From Erysipelotrichia bacterium (lineage in GTDB: Bacteria; Bacillota_I; Bacilli_A; RFN20; CAG-826): a stretch of 64,000 nucleotides of DNA. This document shows, piece after piece, positions 36,232 to 64,000 of the stretch (position 1 is the stretch's first letter; each line of letters begins with the position of its first letter). The position numbers were made by a program, and so were the translations under genes. A model generated the notes under the pieces. It made no database searches, was not told the DNA's origin, and was given only the letters and a program-made list of their open reading frames with translations. The stretch spans positions 22,408-86,407 of the forward strand of contig JAAYJX010000107.1 in NCBI GenBank assembly GCA_012522695.1, in the 5' to 3' direction.

Positions 36232-36535
36232 GGTGATAAACCTCTTTTGTTACTATGTTAGCGAGTTCAACTTTTTTCTTTGTAATACTTTGGAGTAATT
36301 TAGTTTGTTCTTTATTTAAGTTTGCTTGAAAGGCTTCTTTTTTTTCTTCGATTATTTTTTTTGTTTTGGCTTCAATTTCTTCTTTTTCTTTTTTGGCTAA
36401 AGAAAGAAGTTCGTTAGCTTTTTCAGTACTCTTTTGTTTTGTTTTTTCTAACAAGTTTTCTTGATAGATTTTAGCATCCTCAATTAAGGCATTTGCCTGA
36501 CGTTCTGCTAAGATAATTTTCTCCATTGGTTTCAT
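36221..36535 (-). CDS. ntpF: V-type ATP synthase subunit G/H (Enterococcus NtpF; peripheral stalk)
   Basis: 104 aa charged helical protein. It is the first gene of the operon, as in E. hirae ntpFIKECGABD. Confidence 0.7.
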   Translation of the reverse strand: MKPMEKIILAERQANALIEDAKIYQENLLEKTKQKSTEKANELLSLAKKEKEEIEAKTKKIIEEKKEAFQANLNKEQTKLLQSITKKKVELANIVTKEVYHRDR

Positions 36536-36645
36536 ATTCTAGACCTCGCTTTTTTGACTAAATCACAAAGAGTAATTTTAACATAAAATTATTTCTTTTT
36601 CTATAAAAGACTCCTATATTTGCTAAATATTGTGCTTTTTTTCAT

Positions 36646-37254: not shown

Positions 37255-37264
37255 ATAGTAAAGA

Positions 37265-38038: not shown

Positions 38039-38078
38039 GATTAAATAGTTTATACTACTTAAGATATTTCTTAAATAG

Positions 38079-42053: not shown

Positions 42054-42480
42054 TTTCTAGTAAAATTTCTTCTAAACCTTCCCAACCTAAAATTGCACAT
42101 TTTATCCGAGCAGGTTGCTTATACGTATTCATAAAAACGATTGCCTCATCAAGAACGCTTTCATCAAATGGTAATTCGTAAATCATTTGCTCATATTGCT
42201 TAATAATATAAAGGGCTTCATCTTTTGTTTTATTAATAACTAAATCACACATAATATCAGTTGAGGCTGTCGAAATTGTACAAGCGACACCATCAAATAA
42301 ACAATCAGTAATAATATTTTTTTCGACAAATAAGTAAATATTAATATCATCAATACAATTAACTGAATTTAAATGTCTAGTTAAATAACCATCTTTTTTT
42401 GGTTTAGATTTATGCCGAGGATTTTGATAATGATCAAGAATAATCGCCCGCATTAAATTAGTATTAAGTGAAATAGGCAT
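42037..42480 (-). CDS. sufU: Fe-S cluster scaffold SufU (IscU/NifU-like)
   Basis: 147 aa. [10 protein letters not shown]-terminus and conserved Cys/Asp ligands ([22 protein letters not shown]). Confidence 0.85.
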
Positions 42481-43702
42481 CGAGAAAATCTCCTCCTTTT
42501 AATAAGGTATTAACAAGAACATCAATATCTTCAAAAGTGTTATATAAATAAAAAGAAACACGGACGGTCGCAAATTCACCTAAATAATCAAGCAATACTT
42601 TAGCACAATGTTGTCCCGAGCGAACAGCAATACCTTGAGAATTTAAATAAGTCGCCAAGTCTTGGGCAAAAATACCTTTATAATTAAAAGTAATAATTCC
42701 AGAATCAGCAAATTCGTTATAAATAATAATATTTGGATTTTCTTTAAGTTTTTTAATCGCGTATTTTCTTAATTCTTGTTCATGTTGATGAATATTTTCC
42801 ATCCCAATCATCTTTAAATAATCAATCGCTGCTTTTAAACCTAAAATACCACTAATATTTTGTGTCCCAGCTTCAAACTTTACGGGCGGAAGTAAATAAG
42901 TAATATCACCACACATATCAAACTTTGCATTCATCCCACCACCCATCATAAATGGCGACATTTTTTCTAATAAATGATATTTAGCATATAAAACACCAAC
43001 ACCTGTTGGTCCACACATTTTATGGCCAGAAAAAGATAAAAAATCAACATCTAAATCTTTAACGTCCGTATGCACATGCGGAACTGATTGAGCTCCATCA
43101 CAAACTAAAAGGGCGCCGACTGAATGTGTAATTTTAGCTAACTCTTTTAAATCAAGAACATAACCTAAAACATTCGAAACATGAGCAACAGCAACAATTT
43201 TTGTTTTTTTTGAAATAACTTTTTTTAAGCTTTCTGGTTCAAGTTTTCCATTCTTATCAAGAGGTATATAATTAACTTTGCAACCAGTTAATTCACTTAC
43301 CTTAAACCATGGTAAAACATTACTTGCGTGTTCAGCTTGCGTAATTAAAATTTCATCATCTTTTGTTAAATATTTCACACCATAGCCATAGGCTATTAAG
43401 TTAATTGACATCGATGTTCCACTCGTAAAAACAATTTCATTTTTTTGTGCATTAATAAAATTAGCAACACTAAGACGTGCTTCATCAATTTTAAGATCAA
43501 TGTTGTAGCATAAATCATAATCACCACGATGAGAATTAGCTGTTTCGTATAAATAATAATTGCTAATTGCCTCGATAACTTGAAATGGTTTAAAAGTCGT
43601 TGCGGCATTATCTAAAAAAACTAATGGTCGATTTTGCATCTTTACTTCATTTTTAAACATCGGGAAATCTTTTCTTACAAAGTGTGGATTAATTTTTTTC
43701 AT
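42464..43702 (-). CDS. sufS: Cysteine desulfurase SufS
   Basis: 412 aa. PLP lysine context SFSGHKMCGPTG and catalytic Cys (RSGQHCA). Confidence 0.92.
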   Translation of the reverse strand: MKKINPHFVRKDFPMFKNEVKMQNRPLVFLDNAATTFKPFQVIEAISNYYLYETANSHRGDYDLCYNIDLKIDEARLSVANFINAQKNEIVFTSGTSMSINLIAYGYGVKYLTKDDEILITQAEHASNVLPWFKVSELTGCKVNYIPLDKNGKLEPESLKKVISKKTKIVAVAHVSNVLGYVLDLKELAKITHSVGALLVCDGAQSVPHVHTDVKDLDVDFLSFSGHKMCGPTGVGVLYAKYHLLEKMSPFMMGGGMNAKFDMCGDITYLLPPVKFEAGTQNISGILGLKAAIDYLKMIGMENIHQHEQELRKYAIKKLKENPNIIIYNEFADSGIITFNYKGIFAQDLATYLNSQGIAVRSGQHCAKVLLDYLGEFATVRVSFYLYNTFEDIDVLVNTLLKGGDFLDAYFT

Positions 43703-44418
43703 AGCTGTTCCTCAATTGAAAGCGTAATCTTTGCTTTCAAATCAACGTCTTTAAAATATTGGGCAATTGGCATTAAATAGCCATAAGTAATTAGTTTTTT
43801 AGCTTCTTCGATGTTTAGACCTCGCGACATTAAATAAAAAAGATGGTCTTCACTTAATTTACCAACAACAGCTGCATGAGACGCCATGACATCATTTTCA
43901 TAAATATTTAAATAAGGGTTTGCTTTACCACTTGCTAAAGGATCAAAAACGATAATTTTGGCCTTTTGACTCGTTTTTGATTTAATCGCGCCGTTAATTA
44001 TTTCGTTTGCCCCACTAAAAATTAGTTTTGATTCATGACGTGCAACACCATAATTATCCATTTCTGCATAAGTCTTAGGAGCCAAATGATTAAAAAAGAT
44101 ATTAAACTTTTTTTCATCTTTGTGACGACTTAAAGTCGCAAGTTTTAAACTAGCTCGTGCGCCTTTTTCTTTTAAATTAATCTTAAGTTCTAAACTAGTT
44201 GAGCCAAGGGAAAAATCAGCTAAAGCAAGTTCTAATTCACTACTTTCTAAAACATCTATTTCAATTTTGTTTTTTTGACCTTTTTGAAAGTTTAAAAGAC
44301 CTAAATTTAAATAAGAATTTTTATTTAATAAGATATGTAAAGAACTAGTTTCTTCTTCTAAGTTTAGAAGAAGTTGGTCGCTTCGACATTCATTAATAGT
44401 AATTTGTTTATTTATCAT
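43699..44418 (-). CDS. sufD: Fe-S cluster assembly protein SufD (short form)
   Basis: 239 aa. C-terminus [16 protein letters not shown] is paralogous to the SufB C-terminus. Shorter than Bacillus SufD. Confidence 0.7.
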   Translation of the reverse strand: MINKQITINECRSDQLLLNLEEETSSLHILLNKNSYLNLGLLNFQKGQKNKIEIDVLESSELELALADFSLGSTSLELKINLKEKGARASLKLATLSRHKDEKKFNIFFNHLAPKTYAEMDNYGVARHESKLIFSGANEIINGAIKSKTSQKAKIIVFDPLASGKANPYLNIYENDVMASHAAVVGKLSEDHLFYLMSRGLNIEEAKKLITYGYLMPIAQYFKDVDLKAKITLSIEEQL

Positions 44419-45235
44419 CTCTTGCTATATCTTTCGCTGCACAAAAACCAAGAGAGATTTCATTCATTGATGTATCTTCTTTTTCAATCTCAATACCTAA
44501 TTCAGTCTTAATCCATTCATAACCTGTTTCATCAATTTTTTTAATAATTTCTTGTCCGCCTTCAACGACGACTTTTCCATTTACCATAACAATCGCTTTA
44601 TTTAAATGAATCATATTATAAAGACGTGCATAATGAGAAACAATTAAAAATCCTCGACCTTTTGCTTGTTCTTCTTTAATAACTTCTGCGACAATATTCA
44701 TTGCATCAATATCAAGACCAGAATCGATTTCATCAAGCATGACAAACTTTGGATTAAGTAACGTCATTTGTAAAATTTCATTGCGCTTTTTTTCGCCACC
44801 TGAAAAACCTTCGTTTAAAAAACGATTAGCAAGTTCAAACGGCATTTTCATTTTTTGATAGCTTTGGTTCAAAAGGGTATAAAATTCAAATAAAGATAAA
44901 GGTTTTTCGCGTCGAACATTTAAGGCCGCTCTTAAAAAATCAGCATTAACGACACCACTAACTTCACTTGGATATTGCATTCCTAAAAATAAACCTGCTT
45001 TCGCTCTTTGATCAACACTCATCGCGAGTAAATTTTCTTCGTTTAAATAAACTTCTCCTTTAGTAATTTGATAACGAGGATTACCCATTAGAGCTTGTAA
45101 AAGAGTTGATTTGCCATGGCCATTTGGACCTAAAAAAGCAACAGTTTCGTTACTTTTAAGTGTTAAAGTAACGTTCTTAAGAATTTCTTTATTTTCAACA
45201 CTGACGTGTAAATTACTAATTTTTAAGATATCCAT
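44408..45235 (-). CDS. sufC: Fe-S cluster assembly ATPase SufC
   Basis: 275 aa. Walker A GPNGHGKST, signature FSGGEKKR, Walker B VMLDEIDSGLD. Confidence 0.92.
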   Translation of the reverse strand: MDILKISNLHVSVENKEILKNVTLTLKSNETVAFLGPNGHGKSTLLQALMGNPRYQITKGEVYLNEENLLAMSVDQRAKAGLFLGMQYPSEVSGVVNADFLRAALNVRREKPLSLFEFYTLLNQSYQKMKMPFELANRFLNEGFSGGEKKRNEILQMTLLNPKFVMLDEIDSGLDIDAMNIVAEVIKEEQAKGRGFLIVSHYARLYNMIHLNKAIVMVNGKVVVEGGQEIIKKIDETGYEWIKTELGIEIEKEDTSMNEISLGFCAAKDIARDDK

Positions 45236-52194: not shown

Positions 52195-52920
52195 TTAATC
52201 AAAAGAGTGAACTAATTCTTCTAAAAGCGTCTCAATTAAGCTACCAATATGAGGCTGAGCTTCTAAACCAATACGTAGGGCAGATATTAGCTGATTATCT
52301 TTGCCAACTTCGTAAGTAACGGCTTTAAGTAAAAGCCAAGGAACGTCATGAACATAACATGCCGTAATAACGCCACCAGATTCTGTATCAAGGGCGATTT
52401 TATTTTCAATGTGCGAAAAGTTTTTCTTAATTAATTCATTCGCAACTTTTAAATTCGTATGAAAAGTATTCGTTGAAACAAGTGGTCCACGACCAATATT
52501 TAAGTTTTCTGTCCGTGAGTTAAGTGTTTGAATTAAACGAATGTAATCATCTTCACTTGAATAAAAAACAGGTAAGTCTTTAATTTGTCCATATTTAGTA
52601 TTACCTAAAGCTTCTAAGTTCATATCACCTAAATGAACACGTTCAGCAATAAATAAATCACCTTGATGAAGGTTAGGACTAATTGAAGTAACCGCACCAA
52701 CAGAAATAACAATATAAGGTTTATACTTACTAATCATAAAACTTGTCACAATTGCGGAAGTAATATTTGAATAACCTGTATGGGCCAAACAAACATCTTT
52801 ACCAGCAAAAGAACCAACATAATAAGGATGTTTCATCGCGATTTTGTTTTCTTCGCTAATTTTTAGACGAGATTTAAAATATAAAATATCGTCTTCGGTT
52901 GTGCCAATAATTAAAATCAT
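52195..52920 (-). CDS. PNP_UDP_1-family nucleosidase (MTA/SAH nucleosidase-like)
   Basis: 241 aa. The N-terminal MILIIGTTEDD and the internal GSL / ESGG patterns resemble Pfs/MtnN-like phosphorylase-fold proteins. The assignment is moderate. Confidence 0.5.
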   Translation of the reverse strand: MILIIGTTEDDILYFKSRLKISEENKIAMKHPYYVGSFAGKDVCLAHTGYSNITSAIVTSFMISKYKPYIVISVGAVTSISPNLHQGDLFIAERVHLGDMNLEALGNTKYGQIKDLPVFYSSEDDYIRLIQTLNSRTENLNIGRGPLVSTNTFHTNLKVANELIKKNFSHIENKIALDTESGGVITACYVHDVPWLLLKAVTYEVGKDNQLISALRIGLEAQPHIGSLIETLLEELVHSFD

Positions 52921-54485
52921 TAATTACCACCTCTTCCTTTTTCAAAACGATTATTTTCTAAAAAGTTCATATAATTTTCTGGTCTAAGTGGTTCACTATA
53001 ATAAAACCCTTGAATACAATTTGCTCCCATTGATTGAAGAAGACGGATTTGTTCATATTCTTGAACACCTTCAATTACGACATATGCTTCTAAAATATGG
53101 GCAATTTTAATAATTTCACGGACTAAACCGCGTGATTTTTCATCAATTTCTAAATCACTTAAGAAAGCACGATCAATTTTAATAATGTCAAAAGGAATAC
53201 GTTTAATATAACTAAGTGAAGAGAAGCCTGTGCCAAAGTCGTCAATTGCTACTTTAATATTTAAAGCTTTAATTTTTTTGACAACCGCTAACAAATATAA
53301 AACGTCATATGGTGAAGGCGATTCAACGATTTCTACTTCTAATAACATCGGATTAATTTTATATTTTTTAATTGTTTCTTCAATATAAGGAACAACATCA
53401 CTACTAAAAATCATCCGTTTGGATAAGTTAACTGAAATAGGTAAAAGTCTTTTGCCGTGATCTCGCCAATGAGCTAAACGCTGACAAACAAGATCAAAAA
53501 CGTATTTATCAATTTCAATAATTAAATCAGATTGTTCGGCTAAAGAAATAAAAGCCGCTGGTGAAATTACACCACGCTCAGGATGAATCCAACGAAGTAG
53601 GGCTTCACTTGAAACAAAACGTTTAAGTTTTAAGTCGTATTTTGGTTGAAAGAAAACTTCAAATTCTTTTTTCTTTAAACCTTCTTCAATATCACGAGCT
53701 AAACCAACGTTACGTTCGCTTTTTTTAAACATTGAATCATTAAAAATAAAAATACCGCCGCGATCTGTATTAAGACGACCAAAATCACTTGCAATTAAAG
53801 CTGTTTGAAATAAACTTTCAGCCGAAGAGGTTTCTTTATTACGAATTGATAAACCATAGTGAGGATTAAAATCAATATTAACTTTTTCTTCACTTAAAAG
53901 ATGGTTAATATGTTCACTAAGTTTTTCTAAAGATTGTTGCATTTTCTTTTCGTTATATTTTGGAATAAAAAGTAAGAAGTTATCTGAATAATCATATCCA
54001 TAAAGTAATTTGGGATATTGTTTTTTTAATTCATCAATTGCTAAAAAAACCATACTAATAACTTTTGATTCTTTTTCATAACCATAACGTAAGAAAACTT
54101 CTTTTTTAAATTTAAACGTTGAAAAAGCAATTGCGACTGCTTCTTCATATTCTTTCCGACGGAAAAATTTATTAATTTGTAAAATTAAATCTCTTTCATC
54201 TAAAATATTTTCCGCTAATGGAAATAAGTTAGTATTTAAAACACGTTTAACAGATACTTGTTGCGAACGAGAGTAATTAATTAAGGCAAAAACTAAAAAG
54301 GCAATGCTTGTCAAAGTTAAAATAACAATTGCAAGTATTTTGTAGGCTAAATTACCATCAATGACTATAAAAGAGTCAAATAGCCCAGCGCTAACAATAA
54401 TATTTACAATAAAAAAGATAATAAAGCCTAAAAAATATAAGCTATATCGTAATGGATAATTAGGATTCTTATTTTTCATCTTCAT
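52920..54485 (-). CDS. Membrane-anchored degenerate-GGDEF / EAL c-di-GMP phosphodiesterase
   Basis: N-terminal 2 TM and a periplasmic-like loop. EAL domain with EALLRW and DDFGTGFSSL. No GGDEF signature. The start was probably trimmed to MKMKNKNP, and the track ORF extends to 54533. Confidence 0.75.
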   Translation of the reverse strand: MKMKNKNPNYPLRYSLYFLGFIIFFIVNIIVSAGLFDSFIVIDGNLAYKILAIVILTLTSIAFLVFALINYSRSQQVSVKRVLNTNLFPLAENILDERDLILQINKFFRRKEYEEAVAIAFSTFKFKKEVFLRYGYEKESKVISMVFLAIDELKKQYPKLLYGYDYSDNFLLFIPKYNEKKMQQSLEKLSEHINHLLSEEKVNIDFNPHYGLSIRNKETSSAESLFQTALIASDFGRLNTDRGGIFIFNDSMFKKSERNVGLARDIEEGLKKKEFEVFFQPKYDLKLKRFVSSEALLRWIHPERGVISPAAFISLAEQSDLIIEIDKYVFDLVCQRLAHWRDHGKRLLPISVNLSKRMIFSSDVVPYIEETIKKYKINPMLLEVEIVESPSPYDVLYLLAVVKKIKALNIKVAIDDFGTGFSSLSYIKRIPFDIIKIDRAFLSDLEIDEKSRGLVREIIKIAHILEAYVVIEGVQEYEQIRLLQSMGANCIQGFYYSEPLRPENYMNFLENNRFEKGRGGN

Positions 54486-55251
54486 CTCTCCTTTCTTCGC
54501 TTGAAGACCGCAGTTTTTCTTTTTCTTTTTCAATTAAAAGTTTGAGTTTTTCTTGCTGCTTAATTTTTTCAAATTCATCTAAGCCTTCAAAATCAACTGA
54601 AACTTTTTCTGTTTCTTCTTTGCGCTCTTTAACATTTTTAGAAATATCAAAAAGCGAGCTAATAAAAACGTATAAAAGAGGAACAAGACCAACGATAATA
54701 ATCGTAAAAGGATTGCGCGTAAATTTAACGAAAAGTCCTAAAGCTTTAGAGTTTTTAATCCAAACTCCTAAGACGTCTTCTTCTTTAATCGTGTCAATTC
54801 CTTTACCCGTGCTTTGATCGCACACACCATTAGGAAATTGAGAACAAGTTTCGGCATTTTTATTATCACCAAATGTTTTAAAAGTAAATTTACCATCATT
54901 TTCAATTTTTTCAATAACACGGTGAGTAATAATTAAGCCGTCACTTCGACGGAAATAAGTAATAATATCGCCATCCATTGCATCCTCACTACTAGGTCCT
55001 TTAATTTGATTAGCGGGGACGCGTTTAATAATAATACCAACATCAATCGGTAAAACTGGCTCCATCGAATCAGTTAAAACTGTCAGCATTTGATAATTAC
55101 CAAATCGTTGCACACCATGGTTACTTCTCGCCGTAATTAAACCAAAGACTTGAAAAAAGAGTAAAAGACCAGCAAGCGAACCTAAAACAATCGTTGTAAT
55201 TCTATTTACAAGTTTCTTTTTTGGTAACTTAACTTTTTCTTTCTTATTCAT
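54469..55251 (-). CDS. sipW: Signal peptidase I of ER/archaeal (SipW) type, with extended charged C-terminal tail
   Basis: 260 aa. N-terminal TM, SMEP catalytic-Ser motif (LTDSMEPVL) characteristic of SEC11/SipW-type SPases, a second C-terminal TM, then a K/E-rich tail. Confidence 0.75.
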   Translation of the reverse strand: MNKKEKVKLPKKKLVNRITTIVLGSLAGLLLFFQVFGLITARSNHGVQRFGNYQMLTVLTDSMEPVLPIDVGIIIKRVPANQIKGPSSEDAMDGDIITYFRRSDGLIITHRVIEKIENDGKFTFKTFGDNKNAETCSQFPNGVCDQSTGKGIDTIKEEDVLGVWIKNSKALGLFVKFTRNPFTIIIVGLVPLLYVFISSLFDISKNVKERKEETEKVSVDFEGLDEFEKIKQQEKLKLLIEKEKEKLRSSSEERRDEDEK

Positions 55252-56647
55252 CTTCTTTCCTTCTCATTTTAGCAACATTAATAACTTGTTCGCGCGCTTT
55301 TGCTAAAAGGGCTTCTTCTTCTAATCGTAGTTTTTCTAATCTTTCTTTTTCTTTTTTTGCTAAAATAGCGTCTTGTTTACGTTTAGCAAGAAGTAATTTA
55401 CGTTGACGTTCTTTTTCTTTCTTTTCAAGAGCTTTAAGTGCGGCAAGTTTTTTTGCCTCTTCGCGTTTTTCTAAAGCAAGTTGACGTTCTTTAGCTCTTT
55501 CTTCAAGACGAAGTTGTCGACGTTTTTCAGCCGCTTCAGCCCGTTTAATTTTTGCTTCAATTTGGGCAAGTGTTTCTTTTTTAACATCAACGCCGAAGGT
55601 TACGCTTTTACCAATAATTTTATCGTCAGTTAAATCAACATCAAGACGAACTTTTTTAAAGCGAGGTTTATAAAAGTATTGTTTCTTTTTATCACTTGGC
55701 ATCGTATGGTCACTTCTAAGTGTTAAATAAGAACTTAACATTAATAAATGTAAATCATCTAAATAATCTTCTTTAAATTCAATATCGTTTTGGCTAAAGC
55801 GATATTCAATACCTAAGACGTCATAACGTGTAATAAAAAGCCAGAGACGATACGCTGCTTGATATTCATAATTAAGACGCATTATATTTGTTTGTTGGAC
55901 CGGATCACTAACTGGTGCGACTTTACGCATTTCAAGCATAAAGCGCGAAGTTGTTAAGTATGTAATCCGTTTACGAATATGAAGAAGACGGTCGAGTAAA
56001 TCAGCATTAGCGTGTCTTTTCCCATCATCATCACTAGGAACAACAATCCGCATCTTAGTTTCAAATTCATATGATACTTCGTCGATTTTCATTTCTGAAG
56101 TTAATTTAACAATATCACTATGCCGTGTATCACTATGTTCAGATATATATTTATATCTAAGTTCAATAAAAGCTTGAAGACGACGAACAAGCGTCATAAT
56201 AAAACGGTTTTCATATATTTTTAATTCATCATCCATAAACATATTTAAAACTCGTTTAGGTTCGATTGTTCCATCACTACCAACTGAGCGGATATTTTGT
56301 GTATTTTGTGACATATGTTCAATTGAACGTTGGGTAATCTTTTTCGCCTTTTCAACACCGACAACTTCGGCTGTTTCTTTAATAAAACGATGTGGATCAT
56401 TAACAATTGCTTCTAAAGAAGGAAGCGCTCTTTCAATTTCTAAAATAAAATCAGGTGCATAAGTTTTAACTTCACGACGCGACACACCGCCATAAGTATT
56501 TTTAGAAGCAGCAAAAATATTTAAAAGTTCATGATATTCTTCATCACTACTTGCTAAACGTTTTAAGCGTGAAAAATGTTTTTGTTTTAAATCTTTAATA
56601 ATTTCGCTAGGAGTTAATACGGGAGCGTCTTTTTTGGTTTTTGCCAT
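55244..56647 (-). CDS. Hypothetical protein with a long C-terminal K/E/R-rich coiled coil. Partner of the AAA_5 ATPase; McrC-like role possible.
   Basis: 467 aa. No recognisable catalytic motifs beyond weak D...E.K-like stretches. Its start overlaps the sipW stop (8 nt) and it is 16 nt downstream of the ATPase gene. The last ~120 aa are a heptad-rich charged tail. Confidence 0.45.
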   Translation of the reverse strand: MAKTKKDAPVLTPSEIIKDLKQKHFSRLKRLASSDEEYHELLNIFAASKNTYGGVSRREVKTYAPDFILEIERALPSLEAIVNDPHRFIKETAEVVGVEKAKKITQRSIEHMSQNTQNIRSVGSDGTIEPKRVLNMFMDDELKIYENRFIMTLVRRLQAFIELRYKYISEHSDTRHSDIVKLTSEMKIDEVSYEFETKMRIVVPSDDDGKRHANADLLDRLLHIRKRITYLTTSRFMLEMRKVAPVSDPVQQTNIMRLNYEYQAAYRLWLFITRYDVLGIEYRFSQNDIEFKEDYLDDLHLLMLSSYLTLRSDHTMPSDKKKQYFYKPRFKKVRLDVDLTDDKIIGKSVTFGVDVKKETLAQIEAKIKRAEAAEKRRQLRLEERAKERQLALEKREEAKKLAALKALEKKEKERQRKLLLAKRKQDAILAKKEKERLEKLRLEEEALLAKAREQVINVAKMRRKEDE

Positions 56648-56662
56648 GACTATCCTCCTTTA

Positions 56663-58183
56663 TTAACCTATTTTTAAATAATCTGAAATAATTCTTTGTG
56701 ATTGCCAAAAAACACCTTTACCAAATAATTTATCAAGTTCACTCGAAAGTTCTTTTAATTCATCGTGCATAAACGCTAAGTTAAGCGAAGTAAATTTCTT
56801 TAAAACTTTAGAAGCAAAAATAAAATCAAGTGCTTCGTTTTCTGTACCCCCGCAAGCAATATAGTTCGAAGTAAAAAGACGAAGTTGTCTTAAAATTCGA
56901 TTACCAAAAGCAATCCGAAAACGATCAGCAACAAGTTTATCTAAACGATCAAATTTTGTTAATGCTTCTTTACTAATTGGGTAATTTGTTTGAGCGTTAG
57001 CAAAAAGTTTTAAAAAATCAGCTGAAGAAATTGAAACACCTTCCGTATATTCAACTGAACATGCTTCAATTTTTTCATTTAAAGTAATACTAATTGCTCG
57101 ATCATAAACTTTATCAGTAATTGTAAAAGTTGAGTCATCATTATTTGCTGTACCGACAAACCAAAGGTTTTGGGAAATAAGTAATTTACCATTTTCTAAT
57201 TGTTTAGGATTAATATTATCGGCTGTTCTTGTAATTTGAACTTTCCATTCATCAACCGAAGGCATTTCCATAATTGAAAGAAAGTCAGCAAAATAATATT
57301 CAATACGCGCGAGGTTCATTTCATCAAGAATAATCATATTCGGTTCTTGACGGTAACTTGCTTCATAAATAGCTTGTAAAAATTCGGTTTCATTAAACTT
57401 TTTCGTAAATTCATTAAAATAACCGAGCATTTCTGTTCTTTCTCGCCAAGATGGTTGAACAGAACATATTACCGCGTCATGTTTAAAAAACTTACCAATT
57501 GCATATGGTAAAGAAGTTTTACCAGTTCCCGAAATACCTTCTAAAATAATAAACTTCGATGTTCCTAACGCCGCAAACATCGTCCGAACTGTGCTCATAT
57601 CATAATATAAACAAAGCTGAGAGGCGGCAAAACGGAAAAAACGATCAACAATTTGTTCTAAAGAAATACCAATATCACTAGGTGGAACTTCGACAGTTGT
57701 ATCTAAATCAGCATATTTAATATCTATTGCTCCCAATTTTGGAAAGGCTTCTAAAACACGACGGTCACTACCTTCACCATCTTCACCTTCTGGTTGAAGA
57801 CCAAAAGAATCAGCTTTAAGTTTTAAAATTTCATTTTTTTCTTGAATTGCTAAAAATAATTCTTTATTTAATTTTTGCACTTCATCAAGAAGTTTTTCTT
57901 TTGAAACACGGCGATTATTAAAAACAATAAGTTTACGAACTAAAAAATACATAACGTAACCAAGTGAACCAATAAGGGCAAAGACTAAAATAATAAAAAC
58001 GACGAAGAGAATCCAGCCTCCTGCGCCGAATTGATGATTGTATGTTTGAAAAATTAATTTGTATTGACCAAAGTCACTACCAACTCCATACCAAGGTTCA
58101 GCAAAAATCGTTGCTAAAAAATGGCCTAAGTTTTTAAATAAAGCTTCAAACAACTCTCGAATGTAATTAAAAAATGCACTCAT
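56663..58183 (-). CDS. Membrane-anchored AAA_5 (McrB-like) ATPase/GTPase
   Basis: 506 aa. One strongly hydrophobic TM (WILFVVFIILVFALIGSLGYVMYFLV), a coiled coil, Walker A EGISGTGKTS, McrB-like Walker B/sensor ILDEMNLARIEYYF and FVGTANNDD. Confidence 0.65.
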   Translation of the reverse strand: MSAFFNYIRELFEALFKNLGHFLATIFAEPWYGVGSDFGQYKLIFQTYNHQFGAGGWILFVVFIILVFALIGSLGYVMYFLVRKLIVFNNRRVSKEKLLDEVQKLNKELFLAIQEKNEILKLKADSFGLQPEGEDGEGSDRRVLEAFPKLGAIDIKYADLDTTVEVPPSDIGISLEQIVDRFFRFAASQLCLYYDMSTVRTMFAALGTSKFIILEGISGTGKTSLPYAIGKFFKHDAVICSVQPSWRERTEMLGYFNEFTKKFNETEFLQAIYEASYRQEPNMIILDEMNLARIEYYFADFLSIMEMPSVDEWKVQITRTADNINPKQLENGKLLISQNLWFVGTANNDDSTFTITDKVYDRAISITLNEKIEACSVEYTEGVSISSADFLKLFANAQTNYPISKEALTKFDRLDKLVADRFRIAFGNRILRQLRLFTSNYIACGGTENEALDFIFASKVLKKFTSLNLAFMHDELKELSSELDKLFGKGVFWQSQRIISDYLKIG

Positions 58184-58239: not shown

Positions 58240-59436
58240 TTAAATATCTTCTTCACTAGCAGCACTAAAGCGTAAGTTTGCACCGAACGATTTAGATCTA
58301 AGCTTGTTGCTAGAAAAGGCGTCCCAGCCTTCATACCAAATTTGAATTTTAATTTCGGCCACGCCTTTTGTGTCAGTTTTAGCAATTGGCTGACCATCAA
58401 TAAATTCGGCGCTATAAGTCGAAAAAATTGTATGTTCTTGAAGGGCTGGTTTGTAGTTAGGGTGATCAATTAATAAAGGGCGTACGCCTTGTAATGTCCC
58501 TGCTTGATGAAGCGAGGGGGTTATACTAGTTTCCAAAGGAATACTTTCAGTAGTAATATCCCCCCAATTACTTTCATCTAAAGGTTCTAAGAAATCGCCA
58601 TAAGCAATTTCATAACGTGAGCCAACTTCTGATTCATCATTTGGATTAATTTTAGATCCCTCAGGTGTGGCATCAAAAAATCCATCTTCATCTAAATCAA
58701 GGCGGCCCCCGACCGTTGTGTAATCATTTGTATCGCGACCCGGACTAATAATATCGCTCGTTAATTGGCTTTCAAAACCAAAACGCAAAACTTTCAGCAA
58801 TTCTTCGCTGCCATAAAATTCATTGTCCGCGCCGATGAAGATGCCATAATTAGCAACTCCACTTGATGATGTCTCACCATTAGTTGCTTTCGCTACCCGA
58901 AATAATATTGTAAAAGAAATAAATGTTTCTTTATCAGCGGGTATTATTTGTTTTGCTTGTGGACGAGAACTACCGGCAATTGGTTCTTGATATAAGTTAA
59001 TTGCATCACCTTTACTAAAACGTCGAGAAGTAATAGGCATAACTGCATTAGTAACCGAGAAACCATTGTGATAGATAATTTGTCGCAACGTTTGATTATT
59101 AACGACGTTGCTCGTCCAATAAACATAGCCGTCACCTTCAATTCCGTATTCATCTGGAACTAAAGAATATTTTTCTTGTTCATTAATCGAAATTGGTGTG
59201 GCGACACGAAAGCCTACTTCTCTTATGCCGACTTCTTCTTTATTTAAAAAGTCAAAGCCGATTGTCGTTGTGTTAGCTAAATATTCACCAATCGTATAGC
59301 CAAGATAAGAAATTAAGACAAACGCTGCTAAAACACTACTTGAAATCGAGGTTAAAATGATCGAACGTTTTTTACGCTTCTTATGATCATTAACTTCTTT
59401 TTCTATATTAATTTGACGCAAACGCAAGTCCTCCAC
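58240..59436 (-). CDS. Membrane-anchored extracellular protein, distant paralogue of the TasA-like family (TapA-like anchor/accessory candidate)
   Basis: 398 aa. N-terminal basic stretch plus one TM. C-terminal AEIKIQIWYEGWDAF...GANLRF resembles VDVTFRFWIEGEDEH...IGGVFKIDLKMY of the three downstream paralogues. The annotated start is GTG. A TTG 5 codons in has better GGAGGA spacing. Confidence 0.5.
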   Translation of the reverse strand: MEDLRLRQINIEKEVNDHKKRKKRSIILTSISSSVLAAFVLISYLGYTIGEYLANTTTIGFDFLNKEEVGIREVGFRVATPISINEQEKYSLVPDEYGIEGDGYVYWTSNVVNNQTLRQIIYHNGFSVTNAVMPITSRRFSKGDAINLYQEPIAGSSRPQAKQIIPADKETFISFTILFRVAKATNGETSSSGVANYGIFIGADNEFYGSEELLKVLRFGFESQLTSDIISPGRDTNDYTTVGGRLDLDEDGFFDATPEGSKINPNDESEVGSRYEIAYGDFLEPLDESNWGDITTESIPLETSITPSLHQAGTLQGVRPLLIDHPNYKPALQEHTIFSTYSAEFIDGQPIAKTDTKGVAEIKIQIWYEGWDAFSSNKLRSKSFGANLRFSAASEEDI

Positions 59437-59907
59437 TTTCTTAATAGAAATAGTCTAAAGAGACATCTTTGTTCGGTAAATTCACCATGTTTTGATTCTA
59501 ACCCCATTACTTGTTAGAGATCACTTGTGAAAAGATGCCTTTCTCACTAACTTGTTTAGACTTGTTAGGAGTCCCTCTAAAGAATAAAACGATGCTAACC
59601 GAGAATTGCCCAGAATCAATTAGTTATCTTATTCTTTCGGCAACTGGCTACCATCGTTTTGAAGGCCCTATAGTTTTGCGTCGCTAAATTTCTTTAGTTT
59701 TGCCTTTTTCGGTATTGATTATATAACAACTCAATAATCTTGTAAAGCCTTTTAATCAAAATTAGTCATATTTCACTAAATTATTACATTTTACTATGTA
59801 AAGAATGCAAAAAGACATATACTTTATCCAGTTATAACAACCTTAAACATAAAGAAAAAACCACCTAGAGATGGCTTTTCTTCATCTATTAATAATATCT
59901 AAATTAA

Positions 59908-60267
59908 TTATTTTTCTTTTTTAGCCGCTAATTCTTTTTCAAGTTCTTCACGTGCTTGACGACGCGCTTCTTCTAAAAGTTCTTCGTGCGATAAAGCCGC
60001 TACAGCGCCTTCTTTTTCCGTCATTAATGATTTAACAAGTAAGAAGACATTAAACAAGAATAGAATGATTAAAGGCAATACAATTAAAACAAAGAACCAA
60101 ACAGGATTCATTTGTAACCATTTAATAAACATATTAGATGATTCCCCTAACGTAGTTAAGGCAACAATTGAAATAGTAACGAGAACAACGGTAAGTACGA
60201 TCTGTGCGATAACTAAAACCAAATTCAGCCAGCTAGGCAATTTAATTTTTGTTTTTTCTTTATTCAT
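59908..60267 (-). CDS. Small membrane protein (2 TM, charged C-terminal helix)
   Basis: 119 aa. Two hydrophobic helices, then EELLEEARRQAREELEKELAAKKEK. Confidence 0.5.
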   Translation of the reverse strand: MNKEKTKIKLPSWLNLVLVIAQIVLTVVLVTISIVALTTLGESSNMFIKWLQMNPVWFFVLIVLPLIILFLFNVFLLVKSLMTEKEGAVAALSHEELLEEARRQAREELEKELAAKKEK

Positions 60268-60330
60268 ATATGAGCTCCATGCATATTAAAAAAATATATT
60301 CTTTACGATAAAACTATCTTAATAGAAAAA

Positions 60331-60371
60331 AACTAGGGTGTCAAATTAAATTTATTCGACAAGCCCTAGTT
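60331..60371 (-). terminator. Terminator hairpin after TasA-like gene 1 (copy A of a repeated element)
   Basis: AACTAGGG...GCCCTAGTT inverted repeat followed by a T-run on the minus strand. Confidence 0.6.
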
Positions 60372-60406
60372 ATTTTAGAAAACTACGTTATAAACTTTGT
60401 AAGAAA

Positions 60407-61300
60407 TTAAGCAATAACTGGTAATGCGTACATCTTAAGATCGATTTTAAAGACACCACCGATAGCAGCGTTAACTGCGTGTTCGTCTTCGCCTTCAATC
60501 CAAAAACGGAAAGTGACATCAACAGTTGGAGCAGCGGATGTAAGTGTAAGGAAGGGTTCATAATTGTCAGCAGCAGCTTCTGCTACAGTTGGGTAGTAAT
60601 CAAATGCAGCGCCTTCCACAACGTCAGTTAAAACTTCAGTGTCAAGATATTCTTTAACACCCCAAGCTTCATCTTGGTCATCACCAGTTTTGGTTAAATA
60701 ATTGTAAGTTGTTTCTGCTTCAGGTGAATAATGATAAAATGCAGCTCCACCTTTAATCGCGGCCATACGAACGGCTTTAACAGCAGCAACGTCTGCGGCA
60801 TCAGCGCTTGCAGCGGTAACTGCAGTGCCTGCGTCAAAATAAACGTTTAAATCATTTGTTGATTGTGCGCCTGAGCCACGAGCGATTGTTAATGTAAAGT
60901 CAATTAAATAACCATCGGCATCACCAGCAGCGGCTAATGTAATATCATCAATACGATCGGCAACTTGGCCTCCGCCATAGGTGTTGGCCTTCCAGACTGG
61001 TTTGTAAAAATCAATACCGTCGCCGGAAATGTCAGTAACCTTGTTACCGCCTGAAAGAACAACATTATTAACAGTTTTACCATCATTAACATAATCATTA
61101 GTTGTGGCAGTCATAGTGTTTAGGGATGAAACATAGTGAACACTTAAGTCATTATCTTGTGTTTCAACGGTTGCGCTACTATATGAGATAGATGCGCTAC
61201 GGACGGTTGTAAACCAAGCAAATGTTGAGCTGGTTGCAGCAATACCACTTAAAACAACGAGTCCCATAATTGTAAGTAATACTTTATTTTTCTTATTCAT
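60407..61300 (-). CDS. Secreted TasA/camelysin-like protein with SipW-cognate signal peptide (paralogue 1)
   Basis: 297 aa. MNKKNKVLLTIMGLVVLSGIAATSSTFAWFTTV matches the SipW-dependent signal class (compare B. cereus CalY ...GGGTFAFFSD). The mature part is Ala/Thr/Gly-rich. The conserved C-terminus FRFWIEGEDEHAVNAAIGGVFKIDLKMYALPV is present. Confidence 0.7.
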   Translation of the reverse strand: MNKKNKVLLTIMGLVVLSGIAATSSTFAWFTTVRSASISYSSATVETQDNDLSVHYVSSLNTMTATTNDYVNDGKTVNNVVLSGGNKVTDISGDGIDFYKPVWKANTYGGGQVADRIDDITLAAAGDADGYLIDFTLTIARGSGAQSTNDLNVYFDAGTAVTAASADAADVAAVKAVRMAAIKGGAAFYHYSPEAETTYNYLTKTGDDQDEAWGVKEYLDTEVLTDVVEGAAFDYYPTVAEAAADNYEPFLTLTSAAPTVDVTFRFWIEGEDEHAVNAAIGGVFKIDLKMYALPVIA

Positions 61301-61336
61301 AATTTTAAATTCTCCTTTTGTAATGAATATTCTTTA

Positions 61337-62227
61337 TTATAAGTTTACGGGTAATCCGTAAAGTTGTAATTCGATGTCGAATAATCCGCCAATGGCGTCA
61401 TTATCACAATGAACATCTTCACCTTCGAGCCATGCACGGAAGGTAACATCAACTGAAGCTCCTTTTGCCACACTAGCAATTGCAGTTGTAGCACCATCAG
61501 CAGTAGTCACATCAGTGTATTCAACAAACGCATTGTAATAAGGTCCGGCGTGGACAGCGGTTGTATACCCGTCTACACTATAAAGGTCTTCACCAGCGTC
61601 TTCGACAATGTGCTTATGTCCACCAGCTTCTGCTTCAGGTGAATAAATTAAGACGACAGCATCAGCTGCGCTAATAACAGCTAAGCGTGCAGCTTTAACA
61701 GCGGCAGCATTTTTAGCTTCTTGAGCTAATTCTTCTGGTGTTGCAGTACCCCCAGCGTATTCAACTTCTTTAGCAATAATTTTTGTGTCTGGACCAAGAT
61801 ATACTTTCATATCATCATCACCAATATCGTCAAGACTAATCGTGATCGTAAAGTCAACGTAATAACCATCAGCGCTTGTTGCACCCACGGTTGGAATTTC
61901 ATTAGCGACACGAGCAGATGGTTTGTCAAGTAGTGAATTCCAAACAGGTTTGTAAAAAACAAGACCATCACTTGAGACGTCTGTAATATCATTAATGCCA
62001 TCTAAAATGATTTCGTTGGCACTGCCAGTATCAGTCATACCAGAGTTTAATGAAGATTTAAAAGCAATATCTAAATTACCTTCTTTAGTAACGACTTTCG
62101 CGCTGGAATAATGTAGGGAAGCTGTTCGCGCAGTATAAAACCAAGCAAACGTTGAACTAATAGCAGCAATTCCGCTTAAAAAAGCTAAGCCAATTGTTGC
62201 TAATAAAATTTTGTTTTTCTTATTCAT
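61337..62227 (-). CDS. Secreted TasA/camelysin-like protein with SipW-cognate signal peptide (paralogue 2)
   Basis: 296 aa. MNKKNKILLATIGLAFLSGIAAISSTFAWFYTART. C-terminus FRAWLEGEDVHCDNDAIGGLFDIELQLYGLPV. Confidence 0.7.
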   Translation of the reverse strand: MNKKNKILLATIGLAFLSGIAAISSTFAWFYTARTASLHYSSAKVVTKEGNLDIAFKSSLNSGMTDTGSANEIILDGINDITDVSSDGLVFYKPVWNSLLDKPSARVANEIPTVGATSADGYYVDFTITISLDDIGDDDMKVYLGPDTKIIAKEVEYAGGTATPEELAQEAKNAAAVKAARLAVISAADAVVLIYSPEAEAGGHKHIVEDAGEDLYSVDGYTTAVHAGPYYNAFVEYTDVTTADGATTAIASVAKGASVDVTFRAWLEGEDVHCDNDAIGGLFDIELQLYGLPVNL

Positions 62228-62368
62228 GTAGAAAATCCTCCAATAGATTTCTCCTTTGTTGTTAAGGAGTTGTGAGGTCCAAATTGTTAATGGGACAATG
62301 GCCTCAAAGCGGGCAATTCGCTTCTAGTATCCATCAACGAGGGAGGTCAAATAAATACTAGCACCATT

Positions 62369-62398
62369 ATTATAGTATGTTTTGTAACTAAAATGCAA
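62369..62398 (-). promoter_or_regulatory. Promoter for the paralogue-2/1 transcript
   Basis: Minus strand TTGCAT, 18 nt spacer, TATAAT. It predicts a ~135-nt 5' leader. Confidence 0.5.
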
Positions 62399-62692
62399 GT
62401 ATTATGTTGTTACGAAGTAACAAGAAATTAAATTTTTAACATTTTTAAAAGTTTTTTGAAAAAAATTCGCTTTATTTTTATAAATTTAGATTTTTTAAGT
62501 GAATAAGTGACTTTGAAAAATGTGTGATTTTTTTAGTTTTTGTTTCTTTTTAAAAAACCATTATTTTTGTCGTAAAAAATATTTTTTTGCCTTGTGATGT
62601 TTTTTATAATAAAAATTGAGTTTTTTTGAGACTATTTTAGCCTTTTTGAAAAAACTAAATTTTAAAAATTATAAAAGCTGTTTTGGATAAAA

Positions 62693-62733
62693 AAACTAGG
62701 GCTTTTTATAAGTAAATTGTTTGCCCTAGTTAT
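62693..62733 (-). terminator. Terminator hairpin after TasA-like gene 3 (copy B of the repeated element)
   Basis: AACTAGGGC-(loop)-GCCCTAGTT with the same stem sequence as at 60331-60371. A T-run follows on the minus strand. Confidence 0.6.
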
Positions 62734-62755
62734 TTTGTTAGTTTATAAGAATTAA

Positions 62756-63829
62756 TTAAATGACTGACAATGCATACATTCTTAGGTCAATACTAAAGAC
62801 ACCACCAATTGCGGCGTTAACTGCATCATCGTCTTCGCCTTCAACCCAAAAGCGGAAAGTAATATGAGCAGTTGGATCAGCTTCAGTAAGTGTAAGAAGG
62901 GGTTTATAATTTGCGTCTTCAGCTTCGACAACAGTTGAAAAATATTTAAACTCAGAACCTTTTTCATTTATTGTCGGTGTTGAAGGGTCATCTTGAATAC
63001 CTTCAACAGCATTAATCACATCTTCAGGATCAGCGGCATCACCTAAAATTGATGTATTAGAATAACCTAAAATAGTATAAGTAGTTCCACCACTGTCTTC
63101 ACTTAAATAATTATAAAGAGGCTCCGCGTGTGGCGCGTAATAGAAAATAGGCTTTAAGGGGCTTATATCGTCTATTACGGGATTATCAGGGTCAGTAATG
63201 TCATAAGTAACATCTGTTTCAATTACGGCCATTCTTACGGCTTCAACGACTTTATTATTTCGATCTTGTTGTTCAATTTGAGCATTACTTGGATTTTGAT
63301 TTTCGCCTATAACATCAATTGGCGAAATAAGTGTCCCACGATCAAAATAAATATTTAAATCATTTGGCGAATAAAGGTTAACACCACGAGCTATTTCTAA
63401 AGTAAAATCAATTAAATATCCATCAGCAGATTTAGTAAGATTGCCTTTATTATCTTTGTAAGATAAATCTATTTCATTAATATAGTCAGCTATACTTGCA
63501 TCGCCTGGATCATAAGCACTCCAAACAGGTTTGTAAAAATTAATGCCATCGCCTGAAATATCAGTAACTTTGTTAAGACCAGAAAGGACAACATTATTAG
63601 AACTTTTTCCTTCATTAACAGAAAGATTTGTTGTTGCGGTCACTGAATTAAGTGATGATATATATTTAACACTTAGGTCGTTATTTTTTGTTTCAACAGT
63701 TGCGCTTGTAAAAGAAATTATCGCACTACGAACGGTAGTAAACCAAGCAAAGGTTGAACCAGTCGCCGCCGCACCACTTAAAACAACAAGGCCAATTGTT
63801 GTTAGTAATAATTTATTTTTCTTATTCAT
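62756..63829 (-). CDS. Secreted TasA/camelysin-like protein with SipW-cognate signal peptide (paralogue 3, with ~60-aa insertion)
   Basis: 357 aa. MNKKNKLLLTTIGLVVLSGAAATGSTFAWFTTV. N-terminal 110 aa nearly identical to paralogue 1. C-terminus FRFWVEGEDDDAVNAAIGGVFSIDLRMYALSV. Confidence 0.7.
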   Translation of the reverse strand: MNKKNKLLLTTIGLVVLSGAAATGSTFAWFTTVRSAIISFTSATVETKNNDLSVKYISSLNSVTATTNLSVNEGKSSNNVVLSGLNKVTDISGDGINFYKPVWSAYDPGDASIADYINEIDLSYKDNKGNLTKSADGYLIDFTLEIARGVNLYSPNDLNIYFDRGTLISPIDVIGENQNPSNAQIEQQDRNNKVVEAVRMAVIETDVTYDITDPDNPVIDDISPLKPIFYYAPHAEPLYNYLSEDSGGTTYTILGYSNTSILGDAADPEDVINAVEGIQDDPSTPTINEKGSEFKYFSTVVEAEDANYKPLLTLTEADPTAHITFRFWVEGEDDDAVNAAIGGVFSIDLRMYALSVI

Positions 63830-63856
63830 TTTTTTATTTCTCCATAAGCTTTTTAT

Positions 63857-64000
63857 TGATCGTAATGTTTACGAATTTCGATTGTTTCAATTGTAAAAGT
63901 CAGACCTTGATAAACATTAGAGTTACCTAATGTTGATTTTTCATAAAAAACATCACCATTATCTTTTGAGGCAAATTTATAAAAAGTTGAGGGGTCGCCA
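63857..64000 (-). CDS. 3' end of an upstream gene (partial, unknown function), probably co-transcribed with paralogue 3
   Basis: My translation of the minus frame gives ...GDPSTFYKFASKDNGDVFYEKSTLGNSNVYQGLTFTIETIEIRKHYDQ*, stopping at 63857-63859. Only 27 nt separate it from the GGAGAAAT RBS and the paralogue-3 start. Confidence 0.4.

Follow-up and report, generated by a model that had tools for sequence, protein, structure and literature searches.

Introduction

Among the protein scaffolds of Gram-positive biofilms, TasA-type fibres are understood best; they have recently been tied to archaeal pili, with which they share signal-peptidase processing followed by donor-strand exchange. In the TasA-TapA-SipW system of Bacillus subtilis (CalY/camelysin in B. 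cereus; Pfam family PF12389), a dedicated signal peptidase of the endoplasmic reticulum (ER) type acts on a major subunit and on accessory secreted proteins with the same signal. TasA requires SipW rather than the general peptidase owing to the aromatic residues just past the cleavage site (PMC10269814). Donor-strand exchange has precedents in SipW-linked families (PMC9674648, PMC9245690, PMC11580942): in BsaA/BsaB-SipW of Clostridium perfringens and in the archaeal bundling pili AbpA/AbpB, sequence-divergent processed subunits polymerise by N-terminal donor-strand exchange, and paralogous or accessory subunits lie in one operon (PMC11580942, PMC9245690). Here we describe three tandem genes, P1, P2, and P3, and the locus around them in a 64,000-nucleotide stretch of an Erysipelotrichia bacterium (contig JAAYJX010000107.1, positions 22,408 to 86,407), which we call the window. 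We lean towards the explanation that P1-P3, diverged paralogues in tandem, encode the major secreted structural subunit of an extracellular fibre or matrix system that depends on SipW and is turned on by cyclic di-GMP (c-di-GMP).

The locus is like TasA-TapA-SipW in several respects. Its subunits carry a predicted Sec signal that ends in T-[WF]-A before aromatic residues, the locus has an ER-type signal peptidase of its own, accessory secreted proteins with the same signal accompany a major subunit, the N-terminal segment is unstructured in the monomer, and there is a tie to biofilm-type regulation. It is unlike TasA-TapA-SipW in that the mature domain of P1-P3, at about 270 amino acids (aa), is larger and without sequence, profile, or Foldseek similarity to TasA, that three minor proteins stand in place of TapA, that the major gene occurs in one to three copies, that the locus includes a conserved membrane AAA+ protein with a partner, and that c-di-GMP riboswitches are found rather than SinR. 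BsaA and AbpA can be recognised as TasA-like by HHpred or structure, whereas the P1-P3 family could not be with the methods used here, and the BsaA/BsaB and AbpA/AbpB operons contain no AAA+ protein.

The likeness to chaperone-usher, sortase, and type IV pilus clusters is one of logic only: the gene for the abundant subunit has a strong promoter and a terminator to itself, several paralogues are of low abundance, and the major subunit has been duplicated within particular lineages. Unlike those clusters, the locus has, as read from the sequences, no class III (G↓FTLxE) signal, no LPXTG motif, and no usher or chaperone. Riboswitches of the c-di-GMP-I class (GEMM-I, RF01051) precede pilus, adhesin, and flagellar genes in Clostridia and Bacilli. 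Those of the present locus are alike in having canonical aptamers and terminator-type expression platforms before surface-structure operons; they are unlike in that two of them bracket one locus and that the third transcription unit, that of the major subunit, has an unrelated conserved leader, a position in which one related locus (L021) has a c-di-GMP-I aptamer.

Results

Three paralogous genes

P1 (60407..61300), P2 (61337..62227), and P3 (62756..63829) lie on the minus strand, as do all genes and RNA elements of the locus that are placed below by window coordinates, and encode major-subunit paralogues of 297, 296, and 357 aa. The list of open reading frames (ORFs) bore out exactly the coordinates and completeness of the three genes in the initial annotation, which had been made from the letters of the window alone. 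By their sequences the three are homologous beyond question, each scoring 323-353 bits against a hidden Markov model (HMM) of the family, with P1 at 353 bits. Overall identity in pairwise comparison was 61% for P1/P3, 42-43% for P1/P2, and about 38% for P2/P3.

Alignment showed, as had been observed before, that the ends of the three proteins are the most similar parts and the middle the least. The termini are not shared "almost exactly", however: the first 45 aa are 64-82% identical (32/45, 37/45, and 29/45 in the three pairs, with 27/45 invariant in all three) and the last 35 aa 56-82% identical (21/35, 28/34, and 19/34, with 19 invariant), and at the DNA level the termini are 67-82% identical between copies. 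The N-terminal 110 aa of P1 and P3, once described as near-identical, agree at 84 of 110 residues (76%) and at 250 of 330 nucleotides (nt; 76%). P3 is indeed 60 aa longer than P1, but this length is spread over four insertions and not gathered in a single one of about 60 aa.

The description of the cores as hypervariable and of low complexity was not upheld by the data. Ala makes up 14% of P1 and P2 and 8% of P3, and in an alignment of 79 family members invariant residues run through the whole core. The invariant family positions are T26, A28, W29, and F30; G84, T89, D90, S92, G95, P101, and W103; and R265, W267, E269, and G270. Two near-invariant motifs stand out in P1, G....TDISGDG..FYKPVW at residues 84-103 (window about 60992-61051) and R.W.EG.D....N...GG.F at residues 265-284 (window about 60449-60508), and the only residues conserved superfamily-wide are those of these two motifs and the cleavage site. 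Judged by their composition, the Asp/Gly-rich near-invariant motifs could be metal-binding sites. The G+C content at window 60001-62000 is 38.7% against a window average of about 31%, and the rise coincides with the Ala-rich coding sequence of P1 and P2; apart from it, this segment has no sign of foreign origin.

Signal peptide and signal peptidase

The N-terminus of P1-P3 consists of MNKKNK, a hydrophobic stretch, and then S-T-F-A-W-F-T-T, resembling the TasA/TapA signal peptide in build. Its motif TFA↓WF, of the general form [ST]-F-A↓W-F, is invariant. When the family was aligned with 42 TasA-family proteins using hhalign, columns 2-43 alone aligned, with TSTFAWFTT placed on GGTWAAFND; because of this alignment, cleavage is predicted after TFA, so that the mature protein would start at the invariant W-F. 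The NCBIfam model with the most matches in the family was TIGR04088, for the SipW-type signal, which matched 8 of the 79 members weakly (best E 0.0037) and P1-P3 themselves not at all; TIGR04087 matched 3 of the 79, and one homologue carries the Joint Genome Institute (JGI) label "SipW-like signal peptide".

A class III type IV pilin signal (a short charged leader, G↓F/M-T-L-x-E, and a hydrophobic helix) is absent from P1-P3, in which the order is charged, hydrophobic, TFAWF, with no G-FTLIE. A sortase signal (LPXTG, a hydrophobic segment, and a basic tail) is also absent, and the C-termini ...MYALPVIA, ...LYGLPVNL, and ...MYALSVI come directly after the last beta-strand.

About 5 kb downstream of P1-P3 lies a gene for a signal peptidase I of the SipW-like (ER/archaeal) type (54469..55251; 260 aa), which matched NF046067 at E 3.8e-18 and TIGR02228 at E 2.5e-12. 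Its translation contains TDSMEP, ITHRV, and FGDNKN (the GDN box) together with N- and C-terminal transmembrane (TM) segments; from knowledge of the family, we take the Ser of TDSMEP and the His of ITHRV to be catalytic. By these sequence criteria the locus peptidase is a divergent SipW-like member. It is the last machinery gene in the locus and is kept there across the Bacilli clade, more weakly in Clostridia. That P1-P3 are secreted by a SipW-type route is a conclusion in which we place much more confidence than in the explanation as a whole.

Predicted structure and relation to known families

AlphaFold2 (AF2) models of the P1 and P3 monomers had mean predicted local distance difference test scores (pLDDT) of 81.5 and 77.7, respectively, and predicted template-modelling scores (pTM) of 0.80 and 0.79. 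In both models, about 20 strands and two helices follow one another in the same order to make a beta-rich fold. The extra residues of P3 lengthen one helix and form two loops of lower confidence, and the Ala/Thr-rich stretch of P1 is modelled as a helix plus strands with a pLDDT of about 90 or more. Residues 14-36 had a pLDDT below 50. In the monomer model no structure is assigned to the most conserved stretch of the superfamily, nine residues that directly follow the predicted cleavage site. The mature part of P1-P3 is thus confidently modelled as one beta-rich domain, in which the strands would be conserved and the differences between copies would lie in loops.

This predicted domain has no detectable known relative. 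Pfam and NCBIfam scans of P1, P2, and P3 matched no model (PF12389, Peptidase_M73 of TasA/camelysin, gave no match at E <= 1), and PF12389 matched 0 of the 79 family members, whereas all the true TasA homologues that were retrieved carry it. A profile-profile comparison of 89 family with 42 TasA sequences by hhalign found no homology in the mature domain, aligning just 40 N-terminal columns at a probability of 19.7%. The family HMM returned only noise from PDB sequences. Foldseek searches with the P1 and P3 models found no solved structure in the PDB at E < 0.01 and nothing below E 0.02 among viral structures (BFVD), and no fold likeness to TasA (5OF1, 8AUR) or AbpA (7UEG) was found. Membership in the TasA family was therefore rejected on the results of Pfam, hhalign, and Foldseek. 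Homologues are nevertheless numerous: a word-indexed search gave 171 clusters without names, from metagenome-assembled genomes labelled "Bacilli bacterium" and "Tenericutes bacterium", and an exhaustive profile search gave 2,418 clusters at 50% identity (E <= 1e-3), 499 of them at E <= 1e-10.

Divergence and selection

No identical nucleotide tract shared by two copies is longer than 18-20 nt, a repeat finder returned inter-copy segments that were just 75-78% identical, and the synonymous divergence (dS) between copies stands at about 0.8-1 or more in the conserved termini as well. On these values, recent duplication or gene conversion, which had been offered as the cause of the similar ends, was rejected. 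Because the tracts are short and dS is high even in the termini, the ends are taken to be kept similar by selection on the protein.

The ratio of nonsynonymous to synonymous divergence (dN/dS) of paralogue pairs was 0.08-0.24 for those terminal comparisons in which dS could be measured, whereas the core, with saturated dS, gave 0.33-0.70; between copies, dS was about 1-1.7 with a dN/dS of 0.26-0.37. The sister species L070, with aa identities of 51-67%, served as the reference for orthologous comparison. Against it, dN/dS was 0.26 for P2 and 0.36 for P1, and 0.11-0.37 for neighbouring genes; among 40-codon windows none with measurable dS exceeded 0.56, and two P1 windows with saturated dS gave no ratio. 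Codon-level values were thus below 1 in every segment, both for paralogue pairs and against L070. The 11-kb locus was 100% identical (0-1 single-nucleotide polymorphism) across four independent assemblies, and a fifth (L069) differed by one residue in P1, one in P3, and none in P2.

The initial annotation had proposed antigenic diversification and had named cores with shared structure under purifying selection as the finding that would speak against it. This is what we found: structural elements come in the same order in P1 and P3 and the insertions fall in loops, no segment reaches a dN/dS of 1, and the locus is nearly invariant among the assemblies. We conclude, far more confidently than we hold the full explanation, that P1-P3 are ordinary, old, diverged tandem paralogues under purifying selection and not a device for variation.

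A neighbour-joining tree grouped P2 with the single-copy genes of the related loci L009, L011, L013, and L014, placed P1 and P3 as sisters on their own branch, and indicated independent duplications in other lineages. P2 is the ancestral, leader-linked copy, orthologous to the single-copy leader-linked gene of related lineages, and P1 and P3 are an older lineage-specific pair. L070 has P2- and P1-like genes and no P3 at this position. Across loci, the major-subunit gene occurs in one copy (e.g., L005, L009, L016), two copies (L007, L014, L052), or three (the window, L015, L021).

Transcription units and riboswitches

Two transcription units had been recognised, and this division was confirmed: P3 goes with its upstream gene, being co-transcribed with an upstream minor-subunit operon, P2 and P1 (P1 being the second gene) have their own promoter, and both units end in related hairpins. 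P3 starts 23 nt past the stop codon of the upstream gene and P1 36 nt after P2, and a 530-nt spacer precedes P2. Each of the three ORFs is intact and has a ribosome-binding site. The promoter of the P2-P1 unit (62369..62398), read from the sequence, is sigma-70-like (TTGCAT, an 18-nt spacer, TATAAT) and is conserved in the leader alignments of relatives. The intrinsic terminator after P1 (60326..60376; -19 kcal/mol, z -4.1, then a U7 run) and that after P3 (62689..62736; -14.4 kcal/mol, z -4.2) have the same stem sequence; the related hairpins read AACUAGGG...CCCUAGUUUUUUU, with the common stem AACUAGGG/CCCUAGUU followed by a U-run. The P3 terminator lies within a 220-nt repeat, D2, that is 75% identical to the 3' end of P1.

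Longer contigs of the same organism (L001), retrieved by look-up of P3, cover the locus past the end of the window. A c-di-GMP-I aptamer precedes the machinery operon in the window (59636..59714; RF01051, 66.5 bits against a gathering score of 35) and is conserved in L005, L007, L009, and L021. Another, at L001 5853-5933, upstream of window 64000, scored 65.5 bits against the threshold of 35 and stands before the genes for the 279-, 777-, and 275-aa proteins and P3. Overall, the c-di-GMP-I aptamers scored 58-68 bits. In both riboswitches of the window organism, the 3' half is also part of a strong hairpin followed by a U-run; the one in the window (59575..59660) has a predicted stability of -32.6 kcal/mol (z -4.2), and its terminator arm GGGCAAUU is conserved in 10 loci. 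Because the terminator hairpin uses the 3' half of the aptamer, the ligand should block termination, which would make each an ON switch. The predicted structures thus imply that c-di-GMP would turn on both the minor-subunit/P3 operon and the machinery operon.

The leader of P2

Upstream of P2, and of no other copy in the window, lies a structured 5' leader of about 145 nt (62225..62368), described by a covariance model that we call R1. It consists of a hairpin P1 with the loop CCUCCCUC (anti-Shine-Dalgarno), a helix P2 with the loop AAUUGCC, a helix P3 with the loop CCCAUUAA, a helix P4, and then the Shine-Dalgarno sequence GGAGGAUUUU; these helix names are distinct from the gene names P1-P3. 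The three loops CCUCCCUC, AAUUGCC, and CCCAUUAA and the sequence GGAGGAUUUU are the invariant parts. The model scored 120 bits in the window (cmsearch) and 94-155 bits in full-length matches of relatives, with one copy per locus, always before the first leader-linked subunit gene. The 145 nt from the promoter to the start codon of P2 are conserved even where the relatives' proteins show no more than about 45% identity.

Across 25 distinct R1 sequences, whose alignment was fitted to the model and hence favours pairing statistics, 88.7% of pair cells were paired, compared with 30-50% in slid controls, and 16 of 34 pairs showed compensatory double changes, compared with 5-10 in the controls; none of 500 shuffles reached the observed pairing values. 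Compensatory changes are visible by eye in helix P1 (CUAGUAU/AUACUAG, CUUGAU/AUCAAG, CCAAAGA/UCUCUGG). RNAalifold and several single-sequence folds pair the CCUCC of the leader loop with the GGAGG of the Shine-Dalgarno sequence. The leader had no match in Rfam at E <= 1 in an 8-kb scan, and the best in a 221-nt scan had E = 4; a degenerate c-di-GMP-I aptamer, or a member of another Rfam family, was accordingly discarded as its identity. Covariation support for the R1 leader is strong, and it is a well-supported candidate for a new cis-regulatory RNA.

In L021 the subunit genes, in three copies, have no R1, and the first copy stands directly behind a c-di-GMP-I aptamer (L021 8818-8897). The L021/L015 lineage and the others thus have two unrelated RNA elements in the same regulatory position. 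A 21-nt match between window 59591-59611, in the riboswitch platform, and 62311-62331, at the invariant leader loop (inverted repeat I3), is 76% complementary with a perfect 9-nt core. Trans RNA pairing of the leader loop GAAUUGCCC with GGGCAAUUC downstream of the riboswitch in the window was considered and rejected: GGGCAAUU is explained as the 3' arm of the riboswitch's own terminator, and in L005 the leader loop has an extra A with no compensating change at the other site.

Neighbouring genes and distribution

In the direction of transcription, the locus begins with a divergent GGDEF gene, a c-di-GMP-I riboswitch, the genes for the 279-, 777-, and 275-aa proteins, P3, and a terminator; it continues with the promoter and leader, P2, P1, a terminator, and a gene for a 119-aa membrane protein; and it ends with the second c-di-GMP-I riboswitch and genes for a 398-aa protein, a 506-aa AAA+ protein, a 467-aa protein, the SipW-like peptidase, an EAL protein, a PNP-family protein, and a receiver-PAS-GGDEF-EAL protein. 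The conserved locus comprises about 11 genes, and the whole arrangement is kept in distant relatives.

The three proteins encoded upstream of P3 (279, 777, and 275 aa) have the same type of N-terminus as P1-P3 (FTFA↓WL, FSYA↓SY, and ITYA↓WF). The gene for the 275-aa minor secreted protein (m275) runs off the window edge, its 3' end lying at 63853..64000 and the full gene at L001 9150-9977. Two of these proteins are distant paralogues of P1-P3: compared with the major-subunit family by hhalign, m275 gave a probability of 95.7% over 130 N-terminal columns and the 279-aa protein (m279) 94.7% over the first 52 columns. The membrane protein a398 (58240..59436; 398 aa), a candidate anchor or base subunit, has a C-terminal module homologous to P1-P3 (20% identity, with the common motif W.EG.D..N..F..L; hhalign probability 95.0% over the last 48 columns). 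The small membrane protein (59908..60267; 119 aa), with two TM segments and a charged tail, has a small transcription unit to itself, placed between P1 and the riboswitch, and its position is conserved in all loci of the Bacilli clade.

The AAA+ protein (56663..58183; 506 aa), with an N-terminal TM segment and an AAA+ domain, had three matches below E 0.01 among PDB sequences, all of them McrB (best E 6e-4, residues 192-365). Its Pfam matches to AAA_5 and AAA_22 were weak, with AAA_5 (PF07728) at 14.7 bits against a cut-off of 22, and several homologues at about 50% identity carry PF07728. The family comprises at least 8000 clusters at 90% identity, all without a name, and the protein is the most conserved in the system, scoring 400-850 bits in related loci, Clostridia included. 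Its gene always adjoins that of a 467-aa cytoplasmic partner (55244..56647) with a DUF2357 (McrC-type) domain and a Lys/Glu-rich tail; the orthologue of the partner in L009 scored 28.5 bits with PF09823 against a cut-off of 23.3. The pair is like McrBC, which consists of the AAA+ GTPase McrB and its DUF2357 partner McrC, in that the PDB matches of the 506-aa protein are all McrB, DUF2357 occurs in the adjacent gene family, and the genes always adjoin. It is unlike McrBC in having a TM segment and a coiled coil in place of the DNA-binding N-domain, no nuclease domain detected in the partner, and a context that is a secretion and fibre locus and not a restriction system.

The last conserved gene of the locus encodes an EAL-domain protein of the c-di-GMP phosphodiesterase type (52920..54533; PF00563, E 3.5e-66) and is present in L005, L007, and L009. 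The segment 49568-54533 (minus strand), with two genes of c-di-GMP turnover, for the EAL and the receiver-PAS-GGDEF-EAL protein, and the PNP-family (phosphorylase) gene between them, is syntenic with the locus in L007 and L009, and the divergent GGDEF gene lies outside the window at L001 4500-5669.

Farther along, at window 33165-45235, a SUF Fe-S cluster operon, mnmG/rsmG/parA-like genes, and genes for V-type ATPase subunits form chromosomal housekeeping surroundings; the mnmG/rsmG/parA-like genes suggest that a replication origin is nearby. No mobile-element signatures or tRNA genes were found around P1-P3. These housekeeping surroundings confirm that the locus lies on the chromosome rather than on a mobile element.

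The subunit and ATPase families, none of whose clusters has a name, occur in uncultured low-GC Bacilli from digesters and groundwater, with one relative binned as "Tenericutes", and in gut Clostridia. In the latter (e.g., Acutalibacteraceae) the locus is reduced: there are one or two genes for the subunit, the AAA+ gene scores about 400 bits and is accompanied by a larger partner, and a SipW-like gene is usually present.

Discussion

That P1-P3 are fibre subunits of a major/minor, pilin-like kind had been one of two readings in the initial annotation, and it fits the predicted TasA/SipW-type signal, the SipW-like peptidase in the locus, the distant minor paralogues, and the copy number of one to three. 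A sequence of steps can be proposed for such a SipW-dependent fibre or matrix system. High c-di-GMP would stop the riboswitch terminators from forming, and both flanking operons would be on. The SipW-like peptidase would cut after TFA, and the new invariant N-terminus WFTT.R.A, disordered in the monomer model, would be inserted into the following subunit as a donor strand, in the manner of TasA, BsaA, and AbpA. The three copies, which have different regulatory inputs in the window organism (the riboswitch operon for P3, the leader for P2-P1), would either assemble together or stand in for one another as fibre subunits whose surfaces differ, the variable loops being the exposed surface. The 279-, 777-, and 275-aa proteins may be tip or adaptor subunits, the 398-aa protein a membrane-proximal base, and the AAA+ pair may energise or gate assembly. 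For polymerisation by strand exchange, which is argued from analogy, we consider the chances for and against to be roughly balanced.

Several points weigh against this explanation. The mature domain has no relation to TasA that PF12389, profile-profile comparison, or Foldseek could detect. The terms "fibre" and "donor strand" come from analogy, the system being known here from genes and monomer models. Known TasA-type systems need no ATPase, and the TasA analogy leaves the strongly conserved AAA+ pair unexplained. The matches to the SipW signal-peptide model are weak, and the peptidase scores below the curated NCBIfam cut-offs (65.7 against 190 for NF046067, 46.9 against 51.85 for TIGR02228). 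Finally, dS is saturated in most comparisons, which leaves room for episodic positive selection at single sites.

The main rival reading, possible if doubtful, takes P1-P3 for secreted or surface proteins that are processed by SipW but never polymerise, forming instead a coat or S-layer-like cover, a soluble matrix, or adhesion or binding proteins of a possibly wall-less lineage, with paralogues that differ in binding specificity. Polymerisation is after all argued by analogy, the fold is unmatched among known filament subunits, TDISGDG..FYKPVW and W.EG.D could be ligand or metal sites and not assembly interfaces, and the relative binned as "Tenericutes" suits a lineage without a wall. Yet the layout is typical of a multi-subunit filament: an abundant subunit varies in copy number, three minor proteins are its paralogues or share its signal, a further paralogue is a membrane protein, and a peptidase is dedicated to the system. 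The nine most conserved residues past the cleavage site, unstructured in the monomer, suit an intermolecular strand better than a monomer surface.

An improbable alternative is that the three copies are redundant leftovers of neutral duplication, one or two of them being lost. The intact ORFs with ribosome-binding sites, the terminators of both units, and the different regulation of the copies by riboswitch operon and leader all speak against decay; so do the divergence between copies, which points to long retention under constraint, and the orthologues of P1 and P2 kept in L070 at the low dN/dS ratios given above, even though one copy suffices in relatives and P3 is missing from that sister species. 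We regard as most improbable an antigenic or phase-variation repertoire in which the conserved termini serve as recombination handles for shuffling hypervariable cores of a surface antigen, for although the ends are the most similar parts and the middle the least, the proteins are predicted to be surface-exposed, and lineages differ in copy number, the termini are too diverged for homologous recombination in DNA identity, tract length, and dS, no silent cassettes, invertible promoter, or long inverted repeats were found at the locus, four assemblies are identical there and the fifth has one substitution each in P1 and P3, dN/dS is below 1 throughout, and the cores are modelled with one common fold.

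Tandem paralogues as such are ordinary. The subunit family and its fold, the SipW plus McrB-like machinery, the double c-di-GMP riboswitch control, and the leader are undescribed in Pfam, NCBIfam, Rfam, the PDB, and the searchable literature; searches of the literature on SipW with c-di-GMP riboswitches, on McrB with pili or signal peptidase, and on Tenericutes with c-di-GMP-I found no description of such a system. Much more tentatively than the SipW-dependent fibre or matrix system itself, we suggest that the locus might encode a surface filament machine of a kind not recognised before but widespread among uncultured members of the Bacilli and Clostridia, in which SipW-processed subunits of a new fold would be assembled or released with the aid of a membrane-anchored McrB/McrC-like motor, and that the R1 leader would be a new riboswitch or protein-binding regulatory RNA. 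Since a c-di-GMP-I aptamer takes the place of R1 in a sister lineage, R1 might read c-di-GMP or a related signal.

For tandem surface-protein genes in general, conserved ends and variable middles need not imply recombination or immune evasion. The locus combines a TasA-like entry logic with a subunit fold that has no detectable relative, a full set of minor subunits, and a strongly conserved membrane AAA+ pair without precedent in TasA-type systems, and offers a testable example of c-di-GMP-controlled adhesion in lineages related to, or binned with, the wall-less "Tenericutes".

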